Virus record (IMG/VR): IMGVR_UViG_3300028534_000019 | Span: 31,091-95,090 of that record | From: a virus | Lineage: Duplodnaviria > Heunggongvirae > Uroviricota > Caudoviricetes | DNA length: 64,000 nt | Strand: one strand, 5' to 3' | In this document: piece after piece, positions 17,052-39,122 of the stretch | Layout of the letters: every line of letters begins with the position of its first letter | Numbering within the stretch: position 1 is the first letter of the stretch | Notes under the pieces: model-generated | Seen by the model: the letters and a program-made list of their open reading frames with translations, nothing else | Databases searched by the model: none | Told to the model about the DNA's origin: nothing | Translations under genes and position numbers: made by a program

Positions 17052-17250
17052 TCTAAAAAGTGCTGATGAAATATATTTAGTAGTACAGTTTGGAGCAAAA
17101 GATTTTAACAATAGAACACAAGAATTGATTGATGAAAATTATATTCCATTTAGTGATGTTGCTGTTCAAAGTTTTCACGATGAATTTTGCTTTTCACAAC
17201 AGTTTATAAAAAATCCAAAATACATAGAAGAAACAAAAAGGAAAATATAA
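17041..17250 (+). CDS. Hypothetical protein
   Basis: 69-codon ORF overlapping the smpB end by 11 nt. Confidence 0.45.
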   Translation: MIDNLKSADEIYLVVQFGAKDFNNRTQELIDENYIPFSDVAVQSFHDEFCFSQQFIKNPKYIEETKRKI

Positions 17251-18041
17251 TGTTAATAGTACCTGTTGGTTTGCCTGGTTCAGGAAAAACTGTTTTATCA
17301 AGAAAATTTAATACAGTTATAAATGCTGATGAATTGTTTAAGGATAATTATACATTAGATGATTTAATAAATTATATAAAAGAATATAATTATACAGTAA
17401 CAGATGTTTATTTGGATGGTTTATTTATTACAAGGAATTTAGTTAAGAAATTGATTGAAACTTTTGATTATTATATTAGATTAGTATATTTTAAACCTAA
17501 TATAGAAAATTGTATCTACAATGATTTATCAAGAAATAGAGAAAAAGATAGTGTTAATATAATTTATGGTTCTGATTTAAGTTTTATGAAAGAAAGTTAT
17601 TTTAGAAATAAAATAAGAGAAACAATGGAAGTATATAAGGCTGATTATGTAGAATATATAAAAGAAGAAAATAACTTTCAAAATTATATAGAAACACAAG
17701 AGTATGTCTTAGAAGGAAGTACATATGGTACTTGTTGGGATGAAGACGGCCCGTCTGAAACAACACCTGATGACCCATACCATTTTACTGATTTTACAGA
17801 ACTTGAAAAGATATTTAAAAAAATGAATATTCCTTATACAGAAGAAAATTATAATAAAATTGAAAGTGTTATAGAAGAAGAAGATAGAAGTGAGGGTGAT
17901 TATTATGGTGGTTATGCTTATAAAGAGGTTTATAGAGTTGAAGTTACATTATTAATAAAAGCAATACTAAAAGAGTTTTTTGGTATTGATAAAACAGATA
18001 TGGCATATATTAAAAAAGAATACCCTGAACTAATATTTTAA
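17250..18041 (+). CDS. P-loop kinase-like protein (polynucleotide-kinase-like N-terminus) with C-terminal YPELIF motif
   Basis: MLIVPVGLPGSGKT is a Walker A at the extreme N-terminus, as in T4 Pnk-type kinases. The ATG at 17250 overlaps the previous stop (TAATG). Ends ...IKKEYPELIF*. Confidence 0.55.
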   Translation: MLIVPVGLPGSGKTVLSRKFNTVINADELFKDNYTLDDLINYIKEYNYTVTDVYLDGLFITRNLVKKLIETFDYYIRLVYFKPNIENCIYNDLSRNREKDSVNIIYGSDLSFMKESYFRNKIRETMEVYKADYVEYIKEENNFQNYIETQEYVLEGSTYGTCWDEDGPSETTPDDPYHFTDFTELEKIFKKMNIPYTEENYNKIESVIEEEDRSEGDYYGGYAYKEVYRVEVTLLIKAILKEFFGIDKTDMAYIKKEYPELIF

Positions 18042-18056
18042 AAAAAAGGCTAAAAA

Positions 18057-18569
18057 ATGGTAGAAGAAAATAATTTTAGAGAAACAAAAACACATATTTA
18101 TTTTTGGGGTAGTATCTATTCTCAATGGTACACTTCAAAAAACCAATTCAAAGAAGATGGATTTATTTTTCAAAATGCTGAACAGTATATGATGATGAAA
18201 AAAGCAGAACTTTTTAAAGATTATGATGTATTAGAAAAAATGAAACAAACAAGTAATCCAAAGGTATTAAAAAAATTGGGTAGAGAAATTAAAGGTTTTG
18301 ATGAAGATATTTGGAATTTTAATAAAATGGATATTGTTGAAAGAGGGAATTTTTTAAAGTTCTCTCAAAATCCTAAGTTATTAGAAAAACTTATAGCACA
18401 CAAAAATAAACATATAGTAGAAGCATCACCTTATGATAAGATTTGGGGTATTGGGCTTCATTGGTCAGATGATAAGGTATTAAATGAAAGTACTTGGAAT
18501 GGTGAAAATCTTTTAGGTAAATGTATTATGTCAGCAAGAGATAAAATTTTAAATCCAAAATCTATATAA
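18057..18569 (+). CDS. NADAR (YbiA/DUF1768) family protein
   Basis: IYFWGSIYSQWY, FQNAEQYMMMKKAELF, GNFLKFSQNPKL and IVEASPYDKIWGIG are the family signatures as I recall them. Confidence 0.8.
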   Translation: MVEENNFRETKTHIYFWGSIYSQWYTSKNQFKEDGFIFQNAEQYMMMKKAELFKDYDVLEKMKQTSNPKVLKKLGREIKGFDEDIWNFNKMDIVERGNFLKFSQNPKLLEKLIAHKNKHIVEASPYDKIWGIGLHWSDDKVLNESTWNGENLLGKCIMSARDKILNPKSI

Positions 18570-18579
18570 TAAGAAAAAA

Positions 18580-18601
18580 TTAAATAAAAATATTATATAA
18601 T
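18580..18601 (+). promoter_or_regulatory. Promoter candidate (TTAAAT-N10-TATAAT) upstream of dnaK
   Basis: TTAAATAAAAATATTATATAAT, 38 nt upstream of the ATG at 18640. Confidence 0.4.
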
Positions 18602-18639
18602 TAAGAATTAAAACATTTAAAACACAAAGGAGATAATTT

Positions 18640-36833: not shown

Positions 36834-36836
36834 ATT

Positions 36837-36904
36837 TTTTAAGTTTCATTTAAGTCTAATATGTTATAATTTTACATATCAAAAGACAAAAAGGATTTAA
36901 AATG
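36837..36904 (+). repeat. 68-bp promoter/leader cassette, copy B (67/68 identical to 6641-6708)
   Basis: Single mismatch at 36856 (C) versus 6660 (T). Contains TTAAGT (36850) and TATAAT (36865-36870). Confidence 0.85.
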
Positions 36905-37321
36905 ATTTTAATCATAGATACATTATTTACAGAAAGTGTTGCTTTAACAGTTATTCAAGAAAAAGAGAATGAAAAAAGAGTTAAAGAAGTTAATTATAAA
37001 GATGTTAAAAAAGAAATTGAAAATAACACTTTTAATATTTGTAATTTAAAAGATGATGTTATAAGATTTATTAAAATAAATGATGTTCCTGCTGATGTTT
37101 TTGAAAGTTTTAAAGAGTATTTAAGAGGTTGTTTATTTGAATTAACAGTTAAAAACCTTAAAAAAGGTTTTGAAGATACTTTGAAAATACAAGAAGTTAC
37201 TAAATCAATTAATGATTTAGATATTAAAATTTCTATTGCTGATAATGTTTTTGAATTAGGACAATTATCAATAGCATTAGATTATTATAAAAATGAATTA
37301 GATAAAATAAAAGGGTTATAA
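36902..37321 (+). CDS. Hypothetical protein
   Basis: 139-codon ORF. Confidence 0.55.
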   Translation: MILIIDTLFTESVALTVIQEKENEKRVKEVNYKDVKKEIENNTFNICNLKDDVIRFIKINDVPADVFESFKEYLRGCLFELTVKNLKKGFEDTLKIQEVTKSINDLDIKISIADNVFELGQLSIALDYYKNELDKIKGL

Positions 37322-38004
37322 TGGATAATATATTATTAAGAGATTTAGTTAATGAGATTGATGAAAATACTAAGGTTATTTCAGATACTCATTTTTCTCA
37401 TAAAAATATCCTAAATTTTGAGCCTTGTAGATTAACACAAATGAGAATTGATGGTTATGATGCAGATGAACACGACAAATGGCTCATAGATAAATGGAAT
37501 GAGAATGTAGGTAAAGATGAACTTGTTATACATTTAGGTGATTTTGCTTTTAAAAGAGTAGCTGAATGTTTAGAAGAATTAAATGGTAGAATTATTTTAA
37601 TTCTTGGAAACCACGATGGAAATTCAAAAAATACAAAATATAATAAGGCTACTGTTGTAGATGGTTCTTATATGTTTCTAAAGTCTTATACAGATGATAC
37701 AATATTATGTAAAATTGTTGATGAAGATGAGAAAAATAGTTCTTTGATAATTGAAATTGGTGGTAAGACTGTTATGTTTTGTCATTATGCTTTATTTAAT
37801 AAAAATGGTGAATGGGATTATAAAAATCCAAAGATAGCACCAAGAATTAAATATCTTGAGAGTATTTATTCTATGTTAGATTGTGATGTAAATGTACACG
37901 GTCATCTACATAGTTCTATTAGTACTTTTGATAAAAGTATAAACTGTTCTCTTGAACATATTGAGTTTAAACCAACAAAAATAAAAGATTTAAAAGGGTG
38001 GTAA
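37321..38004 (+). CDS. Calcineurin-like metallophosphoesterase
   Basis: Motifs in order: VISDTHF, HLGDF, LILGNHD, FCHYALF, VHGHLH. Confidence 0.8.
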   Translation: MDNILLRDLVNEIDENTKVISDTHFSHKNILNFEPCRLTQMRIDGYDADEHDKWLIDKWNENVGKDELVIHLGDFAFKRVAECLEELNGRIILILGNHDGNSKNTKYNKATVVDGSYMFLKSYTDDTILCKIVDEDEKNSSLIIEIGGKTVMFCHYALFNKNGEWDYKNPKIAPRIKYLESIYSMLDCDVNVHGHLHSSISTFDKSINCSLEHIEFKPTKIKDLKGW

Positions 38005-38172
38005 ATGGTAGTAAATGATTTAAGAGTTATGCTAAGTACAGCATTAGAAATTATTGGTGATAGAAATGCTTTACCATCAGATAAAGATAAAATTATTCTA
38101 TTGATGAAGAGTGAAGCAACAACACATAATCTTGAAGAAATAGAAAAGATTTGTGAAAAATATAAAGGATAG
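38005..38172 (+). CDS. 55-aa hypothetical protein (below the ORF-track cutoff)
   Basis: MVVNDLRVMLSTALEIIGDRNALPSDKDKIILLMKSEATTHNLEEIEKICEKYKG*. It exactly fills the gap between neighbouring genes. Confidence 0.45.
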   Translation: MVVNDLRVMLSTALEIIGDRNALPSDKDKIILLMKSEATTHNLEEIEKICEKYKG

Positions 38173-38174
38173 TA

Positions 38175-39122
38175 ATGTTTGTTGTTAGAAAATTGCTTGA
38201 AGAAGCAAATGATAATTATTTTAAAAGACTTAATGATAATGAAATATCTAAAAATGATATAGAAATTTATGAAACTATTTTCCCTATTAGAAAATTAGAT
38301 GCTAGAAAATTAGATGATTTTGTTTCTAAAACTAACATTGATAATCTATTAATTAAAATTTCAAAACTAGATAATTCTTATATTAAAACTTTACTTAATG
38401 ATGTAATACTGATATTATCTAATGAAAAACCAAACTCAAGTCTAGCAGAAAATCTAAATCTTGTAAAAATGAGAATTGAAATAGATTTAGATGATGATGT
38501 TAAAAATTTTATATATGCTGAGGATATTATAGAAGTTTTAAAAACATTACCTAAAAGAACATTTATTGTAGGTGGTTTTGTTAGAGATTCAATAGCTAAT
38601 AGAAGTGCTAATGATATGGATTTTTGTACTGAAAATAGCTATGAAGATGTAAAAAAAGTTTTTGAAAAAAATAAAAACTTCTCTATTAAAGAAACAGGTA
38701 AACATTTTTCTGTTTTGATTGTTACAGATAAAAATAATCTTGAATCTTTTGAAATTGCTCAATTAAGAAAAGACAAAGATAATGGTGGTGCTGAAATAGG
38801 AACTATTATAGATGATGCTGAAAGAAGAGATTTTATGAATAGTGCTATTTACTTTGATATTAATTCTAAAGTATTAATTGACCCTCACGGTCAATCAATA
38901 GATGATAGTGTCAGAAATGTAATTAGATTTATTGGCAAACCTGAGGATAGAATAAAAGAAGACCCTCTAAGGGTTCTAAGATTTTATAGATTTATGGGTA
39001 GAGGTTGGGTAGCTGATTCAAAATCATTAAAAGCAGTGAGAACTAATTTTAGTTTAATGATGAATGAAACATCTCATAATAGAGTTATGAGTGAAATTGA
39101 AAAAATGGTAATGGGAGCATAA
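38175..39122 (+). CDS. cca: tRNA nucleotidyltransferase (CCA-adding enzyme / poly(A) polymerase head domain)
   Basis: FIVGGFVRDSIANRSANDMDFCT (GGxVRD...DxD), DAERRDFMNSAIYF (RRDFTxNA) and DPLRVLRFYRF. Carries an N-terminal extension of about 125 aa. Confidence 0.85.
   Translation: MFVVRKLLEEANDNYFKRLNDNEISKNDIEIYETIFPIRKLDARKLDDFVSKTNIDNLLIKISKLDNSYIKTLLNDVILILSNEKPNSSLAENLNLVKMRIEIDLDDDVKNFIYAEDIIEVLKTLPKRTFIVGGFVRDSIANRSANDMDFCTENSYEDVKKVFEKNKNFSIKETGKHFSVLIVTDKNNLESFEIAQLRKDKDNGGAEIGTIIDDAERRDFMNSAIYFDINSKVLIDPHGQSIDDSVRNVIRFIGKPEDRIKEDPLRVLRFYRFMGRGWVADSKSLKAVRTNFSLMMNETSHNRVMSEIEKMVMGA

Follow-up and report, generated by a model that had tools for sequence, protein, structure and literature searches.

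Bacteriophage T4 answers the anticodon nuclease PrrC with the polynucleotide kinase Pnk (PseT) and the RNA ligase Rnl1, accompanied by Rnl2 and NrdC.11. A broader repertoire has been described in jumbo phages (Iyer, Anantharaman, Krishnan, Burroughs and Aravind, 2021, Viruses 13:63; PMC7824862), comprising RNA ligases, polynucleotide kinase, phosphoesterases (occasionally calcineurin-like), RlaP proteins whose distribution mirrors that of the ligases, a CCA-adding enzyme, Thg1 and ribosome rescue. Huge phages have also been reported to encode transfer-messenger RNA (tmRNA), SmpB and a CCA-adding enzyme (Al-Shayeb et al., 2020, Nature 578:425; PMC7162821). In this study, we analyzed a 64-kb stretch (hereafter the window) of the IMG/VR virus record IMGVR_UViG_3300028534_000019, in which a preliminary description had listed, beside genes for tmRNA and SmpB, a kinase-like protein, an RlaP-type nucleotidyltransferase (NTase) with a possible second NTase, a calcineurin-like phosphoesterase and a CCA-adding enzyme, and had interpreted them as an RNA-end repair toolkit. 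All of the genes named there proved to be real, to lie where they had been placed, and to belong to the superfamilies assigned to them. On balance, we favor the reading that this phage has, dispersed through an accessory block of about 30 kb, part of the RNA-end repair repertoire described for T4 and large phages, with tmRNA and SmpB standing separate from it.

The evidence that carries this reading comes from the neighborhoods of homologues in other phages. Eighty IMG/VR loci containing CCA-like genes were examined with 10 kb of flanking sequence on each side, and were split by protein length into 36 short-form loci (30 clusters at 70% identity) and 44 full-length loci. RlaP was encoded within 10 kb at 13 of the 36 short-form loci, compared with 3 of the 44 full-length loci (Fisher p=0.0016); phosphoesterase genes were found within the same distance at 6 and 1, respectively (Fisher p=0.042), and Rnl1 at 3 and 0 (Fisher p=0.087). 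The full-length CCA genes, on the other hand, were situated in tRNA arrays of up to 34 tRNAs. Short CCA-like genes were often immediate neighbors of these genes. In locus L034, the genes for RlaP, the CCA-like protein and the phosphoesterase are consecutive, and in L037 the RlaP and CCA-like genes overlap by 3 bp. Gene orders verified by Pfam were CCA-like, phosphoesterase, NT5C-type HAD, HAD_SAK_2 (a "Swiss-army-knife" HAD), RlaP, Pnk (AAA_33 plus HAD_PNKP) and Rnl1 in L049; Rnl2, Rnl1, phosphoesterase, Pnk and CCA-like in L051; and CCA-like and phosphoesterase, followed further along by RlaP and Pnk, in L045. Moreover, L013, the contig in which the CCA-like protein of the window has its closest full-length relative, contains RlaP, the CCA-like gene and Rnl1 inside 9 kb, and Vibrio phage pv27, a phage with about 23 tRNAs, contains a homologue of the window phosphoesterase (39% identity), Rnl1 and a full-length CCA enzyme inside 7 kb. 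Taken together, guilt by association across independent lineages provides good support for an RNA-repair role of RlaP, the phosphoesterase and the short class II NTase.

Two further observations were made in these neighborhoods. A gene for a Thg1-like 3'-5' polymerase, of a family that repairs tRNA 5' ends, was located 2.4 kb from the short CCA-like gene in L015 (6760..7566), a 207-kb contig of a phage of about 20% GC from the same metagenome as the window phage (ERZ27262685), with an Apyc1 anti-Pycsar gene near it; a Thg1-like gene was also present in L073. In addition, a 174-residue protein of pv27 deposited as "RNA ligase" (121790..122314, corresponding to L020 7791..8315) was identified by Pfam as an Acb1 anti-CBASS 2H phosphodiesterase (5.3e-38), not a ligase.

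The gene that had been called a CCA-adding enzyme (38175..39122, plus strand) encodes a protein of 315 residues with a PolyA_pol head (7.5e-18). Its layout consists of a new seven-helix N-terminal domain (residues 1-122), followed by a head and neck in which the catalytic motifs A-E are intact (GGxVRD/DxD, RRD, motif C, the EDxxR template and motif E), and the chain stops just past motif E. Missing are the tRNA-binding body and tail domains, which in CC-adding enzymes bind the acceptor and T-arm (PMC3925840). In addition, an 8-residue deletion in the flexible loop takes out the conserved DGRRP positions, which lie between the B/A region and motif B; the absence of this loop is what marks bacterial CC-adding enzymes (PMC7014341). 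The protein also scored far below every NCBIfam equivalog cut-off for CCA-adding enzymes (NF009814, 93.8 bits against 290), with a PcnB subfamily model scoring nearly as high (89.4). Thus, the class II NTase core was borne out, but because the protein has neither the body and tail that bind the tRNA elbow nor the flexible loop needed for A addition, the "CCA rebuilding" proposed for it appears uncertain. When viral contigs were scanned with this single protein, no relative was found; an alignment used as query later found them.

Upstream, beyond a 55-residue ORF, lies the calcineurin-like metallophosphoesterase gene (37321..38004, plus strand; 227 residues), which had likewise been named in the preliminary description. 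Its product exceeded the thresholds for Metallophos_2 (39.4 bits against 27; 7.8e-10) and Metallophos (27 against 21.5) and matched phrog_547 (1.5e-40), and all of the metal-ligand motifs (SDTHF, HLGDFA, LGNHD and HGHLH) are visible in its sequence. The enzyme is of the YfcE/MJ0936/aq_1665 type, with the uncharacterized protein aq_1665 as the nearest PDB entry (7e-8). Homologues are encoded directly beside short CCA-like genes in L034, L045, L049 and L051, and 1.4 kb from Rnl1 in pv27. These neighborhoods make RNA 3'-end healing a candidate role for the phosphoesterase.

The gene at 24448..25548 (plus strand) encodes an NTase of the RlaP (Pol-beta) family, as previously described; PF10127 was matched at 52 bits, above its curated threshold of 23 (E=1e-13), and phrog_388 at 5e-57. 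The protein is a homologue of T4 NrdC.11, and tblastn retrieved 1511 phage records, among them those with nrdC.11 of Aeromonas phages 31 and 44RR2.8t. With the RlaP of L013, where Rnl1 is encoded 6.7 kb downstream, it shares 42% identity. No RNA ligase was found in the window; the association is seen only in relatives (L013, and L049, where Rnl1 is 2.3 kb downstream). Addition of one or two nucleoside monophosphates to damaged RNA 3'-OH ends has been shown for Pseudomonas RlaP only (PMC12776372).

The kinase-like gene (17250..18041, plus strand, with its ATG start at 17250) encodes a two-domain protein of 263 residues ending in KEYPELIF. It is a member of a small family, ten phage proteins in all, each of which retains the Walker A motif GLPGSGKT (residues 8-15 of the window protein) in the form GLPGxGKT; D27, D56-G57 and a lid-like D92/R95/R97 motif are also invariant. 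With Pfam alone, only a sub-threshold AAA_33 match was obtained (19 bits against a cut-off of 27). When the family profile was compared with PDB, however, matches spanning the whole kinase domain were found to RazKIN (E=1.5e-5), a Lichtheimia kinase, Pnkp1 and the Clostridium thermocellum Pnkp (CthPnkp), and the family hidden Markov model also matched genuine T4-type Pnk genes of other phages. The invariant D27 aligns with the general-base Asp in the "INQDD" segment of RazKIN, a characterized tRNA-splicing RNA 5'-OH kinase, and the residue homologous to D27 in MciKIN, Asp36, is essential (PMC11571804). Judged by this sequence comparison, the N-terminal domain appears homologous to RNA 5'-OH polynucleotide kinases.

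The second domain of the kinase-like protein is conserved family-wide and is unique to the family, with the invariant motifs GSTYGTCWDEDGP and SEGDYYGG. It found no structural match in PDB or among viral models, and its invariant motifs differ from those of HAD proteins (DxDxT). Moreover, HAD_PNKP did not match the kinase-like protein, whereas the genuine Pnk proteins of L045, L049 and L051 matched that model at 3e-32 to 1.5e-37. A putative relative, BT_3980 (phmmer E=0.0019), was set aside as probably spurious. Because it has no HAD phosphatase domain, the protein is best classified as a Pnk-like kinase fused to an unknown domain and not as a T4-type Pnk; the N-terminal Walker A in the T4 Pnk style that had been described earlier is present, but a phosphatase half is not. 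The neighborhoods of the kinase family itself vary and are not conserved; in phage G, the homologue gp242 is encoded two genes from a LigT/2H phosphoesterase. On homology, an RNA-repair role for the kinase-like protein is moderately supported.

The possible second NTase (NTase-like-2; 25550..26602, plus strand; 350 residues, ending in ETYPEIMF) has a divergent head-neck fold resembling that of class II NTases. Searches of Pfam and of PDB sequences, with the protein alone and as a profile, gave only sub-threshold hints. Its 48 distant relatives retain the pattern GGS...DxD...D, with D99, D101, D165, R203, Y207 and a GG pair invariant. Comparison of this family with the short CCA-like family (class II head-neck) by hhalign gave a probability of 92.9% (E=3.7e-7), with the RRD and ED residues absent; a relationship to RlaP was rejected, as none was found by hhalign. 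A precomputed PF26128 tag ("Gad2", an anti-Gabija NTase) was attached to NTase-like-2, but the local Pfam copy gave no match even at E<=10. The same tag appeared as "faint" on a PolyA_pol protein, and it may represent a cross-hit among class-II-like NTases. In pv27, the homologue of NTase-like-2 adjoins a MoxR gene, and no link to repair clusters was seen among the loci compared. We conclude that a divergent class-II-like NTase is indeed encoded at this position, and that it probably falls outside the repair set.

Several observations weigh against a repair repertoire in this phage. No RNA ligase, canonical Pnk or tRNA gene was found in the 64-kb window or in its flanks (8.6 kb on the upstream side and 1.5 kb on the downstream side); within the window, as had been noted beforehand, ARAGORN found no tRNA gene, and no RNA-ligase family was matched among the approximately 70 open reading frames (ORFs) scanned or covered by precomputed Pfam assignments. 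The missing ligase does not refute the kit, because at least 100 kb of the genome is unseen and relatives carry Rnl1 or Rnl2. The proposed toolkit is supported in part, in that RlaP, the phosphoesterase and the short NTase recur as neighbors inside Pnk/Rnl clusters elsewhere, but the window and its flanks lack the ligase and canonical Pnk of those clusters. Furthermore, RlaP/NrdC.11 is a lineage-wide gene of T4-like phages, so that its presence carries little specific information; the phosphoesterase has about 990 homologous phage records with no characterized family member, and metallophosphoesterases act on many substrates. The neighborhood statistics, too, may partly reflect shared synteny among related T4-like phages instead of selected linkage.

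The arrangement of the genes is a further point on the same side. All candidate genes are contained in one accessory block of about 30 kb and 50 genes on a single strand (window 15345..45400), located between the neck-protein gene and gp15, two genes that are neighbors in T4; the block represents a very large hyperplastic region within the structural-gene cluster. Within it, the candidates are strewn over 22 kb, with about 45 other genes interspersed, and lie scattered among chaperones, nucleotide-metabolism genes and unknown genes. Co-residents include DnaK, DnaJ, a second Hsp70, NADAR, Nudix, an actin-like protein, YqeY, ThyX, an SPFH protein, a MoxR ATPase with a DUF2201/VWA partner, and dCMP deaminase. 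Only three arrangements are tight. The first (37.3-39.8 kb) runs from the phosphoesterase through a 55-residue ORF (38005..38172, plus strand), the CCA-like gene and a 76-residue ORF (39123..39353, plus strand) to the tmRNA; both small ORFs were called as genes in two independent assemblies and had no Pfam match. The others are RlaP with NTase-like-2 (2 bp apart) and SmpB, a 69-residue ORF and the kinase-like gene. A promoter and terminator scan of 36.4-39.9 kb yielded 33 promoter-like sites, no better than the 27.3 +/- 5.4 obtained in shuffles.

Given this mixed company, it was considered whether the five are accessory genes without any functional connection, brought together only by their location in a hyperplastic region, a view that we judge rather unlikely. 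The phosphoesterase would then degrade nucleotide or cyclic-oligonucleotide signals or dephosphorylate proteins, the kinase would act on a nucleotide or metabolite, NTase-like-2 would be a Gad2-like anti-defense protein, RlaP an inherited NrdC.11, and the class II NTase would mature tRNA-like RNAs of the phage or host. Besides the dispersal just described, several findings fit such roles: the kinase fold resembles small-molecule kinases equally well, the neighborhoods of its family vary, NTase-like-2 bears the precomputed Gad2 tag, and in L024, the closest IMG/VR relative, an Apyc1-like anti-Pycsar gene lies between the phosphoesterase and the CCA-like gene. However, the repeated adjacency of RlaP, the phosphoesterase and the short CCA-like gene within clusters of Pnk and Rnl1 or Rnl2, in independent phage lineages, is hard to explain without a shared function. 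Also, the kinase profile matched specifically RNA 5'-OH kinases across the whole domain.

The preliminary description had also joined the repair enzymes to trans-translation. The tmRNA gene (39452..39772, plus strand) was detected by ARAGORN, with the tag ANNTDYTGNTVLSA, and by Rfam (RF00023, 90.8 bits against a gathering score of 47). SmpB (16602..17051, plus strand) was matched by Pfam (1.7e-38) and by NCBIfam models NF003843 (130.3 bits; cut-off 130) and TIGR00086 (126.8; cut-off 119.1). The window encodes both partners of trans-translation, namely a tmRNA with a tRNA-like domain, a tag ORF and a CCA end, and the SmpB protein. SmpB is rare in deposited phages (59 records), and it is context for the candidate set and not itself a repair enzyme. 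The tmRNA gene encodes its own 3' CCA, the 3' end reading CATCTCC-A-CCA, and has a G3:U acceptor pair.

The position of the CCA-like gene, which shares the strand of the tmRNA and ends 330 bp before it, the 76-residue ORF alone intervening, raises the possibility of a module supporting trans-translation, in which the short NTase would maintain the 3' CCA of tmRNA and the phosphoesterase would clear blocked 3' ends, so that tmRNA stays chargeable. Loss of the body and tail may adapt the NTase to such a non-canonical substrate, and tmRNA does occur within 10 kb of full-length CCA genes at 7 of 44 viral loci (L063, L064, L075, L077, L086, L087 and L091). Yet these tmRNAs usually sit inside tRNA arrays, which probably reflects clustering of RNA genes. 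No tmRNA lies within 10 kb of the short form at any of the 36 loci or in any of three relatives examined individually, and a tmRNA beside a short CCA-like gene was on that count rejected as a conserved feature. Moreover, the CCA is already encoded by the tmRNA gene, and SmpB is encoded 21 kb away. Such a module is therefore improbable, and the proposed coupling of the repair genes to trans-translation was not upheld. Instead, tmRNA and SmpB look like a separate, independently acquired translation-support module of the huge-phage kind rather than obligate partners of the repair set.

From family membership and conserved neighborhoods, a possible order of events for the partial repair repertoire can be outlined. 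Host ribotoxins would cut or trim a tRNA, and the metallophosphoesterase would take off the 2',3'-cyclic or 3'-phosphate from the broken 3' end, while the kinase-like protein would phosphorylate the 5'-OH end. RlaP, as an NrdC.11-like enzyme, would then restore one or two lost nucleotides at the 3'-OH. The short class II NTase, free of the tRNA-elbow anchor that restricts canonical CCA enzymes, might add C, and possibly A, to RNA 3' ends, and the break would finally be sealed by an Rnl1/Rnl2-type ligase encoded outside the window.

The concept of such a repair kit has already been published for jumbo phages. What appear to be new here are a repair-cluster-specific family of head-neck-only NTases, a stand-alone metallophosphoesterase as a recurrent cluster member, and a Pnk-like kinase with a novel C-terminal domain. 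If the favored reading is correct, RNA-end repair would be a common, modular counter-defense in environmental T4-like phages, and its uncharacterized components would be the metallophosphoesterase of phrog_547 (about 1000 phage records), encoded on its own, a minimal class II NTase without tRNA-measuring domains, and a kinase of the Pnk type joined to a new C-terminal domain. As a natural experiment, the minimal NTase would be useful for learning how class II enzymes select their substrates and halt once CCA is complete. The clusters of L034, L049 and L051 would offer ready-made sets for biochemical reconstitution, and pv27 a cultivable relative for genetics.

A separate finding concerns the C termini of two of the five candidate proteins. 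The kinase-like protein and NTase-like-2 both end in YPE[IL]xF, as do at least five unrelated small ORFs of the window. The consensus of this ending, h-x-x-h-[KR]-x-x-[YH]-P-E-[YLI]-[FL]-[ILF]-stop (the PE-hhh or PE tail), is common to dozens of otherwise unrelated proteins, mostly hypothetical proteins of 60-145 residues. The seven carriers in the window are located at 6951..7157, 8181..8423, 17250..18041, 25550..26602, 30909..31217, 32911..33183 and 34593..34802. The Pro and Glu of the tail are invariant across the kinase family, and the Glu is kept in at least 90% of the NTase-like-2 family (consensus end YPEYFI). ORFs with PE tails were also found in L003, L005, L006 and L057, with 4-10 in each related phage contig, and pv27 (L017-L021) has 36, about 10% of its genes; none was found in the other T4-like contigs examined. 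From amino-acid composition, only about 0.01 would be expected per locus, and the motif is essentially never internal.

Several explanations for the PE tail were rejected or disfavored. A DNA element was rejected, as every synonymous codon and each of the three stop codons occurs; because these vary freely, the signal lies at the protein level. Descent from one paralogous family was also rejected, since 61 carriers fell into 57 BLASTP clusters once the last 16 residues had been removed. A sliding-clamp docking motif is disfavored, as a different, acidic-aromatic tail stands at the C termini of polymerase, RNase H, helicase and gp32 (RNase H, SLDDFLEW, and gp32, DDLSFLEDL, in the window; DNA polymerase, ESLDDW, RNase H, DDFGW, and helicase, DLDDLYKELGL, in pv27). 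These acidic-aromatic tails resemble the clamp- and gp32-docking tails of T4 and are distinct from the PE tail. The last residue of the PE tail is phage-specific, being F in the window phage, L in L003 and L005, and almost always I in L006 and pv27, which suggests co-evolution with one receptor. No annotation or relevant literature was found for the tail strings. From its sequence pattern, the PE tail looks as if it docks or targets its carriers to some hub. We regard it as the most interesting lead of the analysis; its presence on about 10% of pv27 ORFs suggests that a cultivable phage has a system for protein targeting or docking that has not been described before, which may matter more than the repair set.

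A MoxR-type AAA+ ATPase (33465..34577) and a DUF2201 protein (metallopeptidase-like plus VWA; 35220..36473) are encoded in the window and conserved in pv27 (92433..93542 and 46511..47845; 41% and 37% identity, respectively). The MoxR gene is flanked by ORFs with PE tails in the window, in L005 (8437..9549) and in pv27, an arrangement that is a possible lead but, given the frequency of the tail, could be due to chance. The DUF2201 homologue of pv27 has been deposited as an "HNH endonuclease", which looks like a mis-annotation.

A more far-reaching proposal, which we advance with considerable doubt, would unite several of these findings. The head-neck-only class II NTases may form a phage-specific family of at least 30 non-redundant viral clusters that has lost the elbow "anchor" and works in RNA-repair modules with RlaP, phosphoesterase, Pnk and Rnl. 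Such enzymes might restore C or C/A at broken RNA ends generally, conceivably at trimmed anticodon-loop breaks and damaged acceptor ends, rather than carry out housekeeping CCA addition, while the kinase-like protein and NTase-like-2 might be routed to a common hub by the PE-hhh docking tail.

The phage that carries these genes branches deeply among the T4-like myoviruses and is represented by metagenomic sequence alone (ENA ERZ27262685 and Logan SRR8439170). GC content is 24-28% throughout the window (mean about 26%), and nearly all genes are on the plus strand. No near-identical relative was found among 50,697 deposited phages by megablast with a 23-kb query. The T4-type backbone recognized by Pfam includes gp32 (1345..2358), RNase H (2370..3512), the large terminase (12055..13872), a prohead-protease-like gene, the neck protein (14607..15344), gp15 (45435..46223, minus strand), gp5, gp6 and baseplate proteins. 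By terminase, the nearest among cultured phages is Vibrio phage phiKT1024/pv27 (41% identity), with the Campylobacter CP220 group next (38%).

Other genes of the window also deserve mention. DnaK (Hsp70, 1.7e-230), DnaJ and a divergent second Hsp70 (4e-141) are encoded at 18640..20490, 20502..21305 and 39844..41706, respectively; phage-encoded Hsp70 systems are unusual in T4-like phages, and pv27 carries GroEL/GroES in place of the Hsp70 system. Genes related to NAD and ADP-ribose encode Sir2 (4884..5633), DUF488 (5621..6088), NADAR (18057..18569; 3.8e-45) and Nudix (21365..21769) proteins, with the NADAR gene directly downstream of the kinase-like gene; this set may serve NAD-centered defense or counter-defense rather than RNA repair. 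Just downstream of the two NTase genes, an actin-like protein of the ParM/Alp family is encoded at 26665..27576 (ALP_N, 2.8e-12; MreB-like_C, 2.7e-8).

Compared with T4, the window phage shares the backbone proteins gp32, RNase H, gp17, gp5, gp6 and gp15, a homologue of NrdC.11/RlaP and a kinase N-terminal domain apparently homologous to Pnk-type kinases, and in its relatives Rnl1, Rnl2 and Pnk are found next to these accessory genes. It differs in that the window has neither a Pnk with a HAD phosphatase nor a ligase, so that 3' healing would fall to a stand-alone metallophosphoesterase, and in that the window kinase has a novel C-terminal domain. In addition, the short class II NTase, tmRNA and SmpB are present in the window, none of which T4 is known to encode.

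The bacterial Pnkp/Hen1 system, in which C. thermocellum Pnkp combines kinase, calcineurin-type phosphoesterase and ligase, is similar in using a P-loop 5'-kinase and a binuclear metallophosphoesterase for end healing, and the kinase of CthPnkp is among the best matches of the kinase-like protein by both structure and profile. In the window, however, the kinase and the phosphoesterase are encoded by two genes lying 19 kb from each other, a Hen1 methyltransferase was not seen, and the phosphoesterase falls among YfcE/MJ0936/aq_1665-like enzymes. Bacterial class II CC-adding enzymes likewise have motifs A-E intact, including EDxxR, and lack the DGRRP loop positions (PMC7014341), but they keep body and tail (PMC3925840), whereas the phage protein stops after motif E and has an unrelated N-terminal helical domain. 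With the huge phages (PMC7162821), the window phage shares phage-encoded tmRNA, SmpB and a CCA-adding type of enzyme; those phages exceed 200 kb and belong to other clades, while here the backbone is T4-like and the NTase is the short, repair-cluster-associated form. The jumbo-phage survey (PMC7824862) lists the same cast of enzymes, but with PTH2 as the rescue factor; tmRNA and SmpB are not mentioned there, and a head-neck-only CCA-like family is not separated. The present phage has a T4-like genome and is known from metagenomic contigs only (about 57 and 101 kb).

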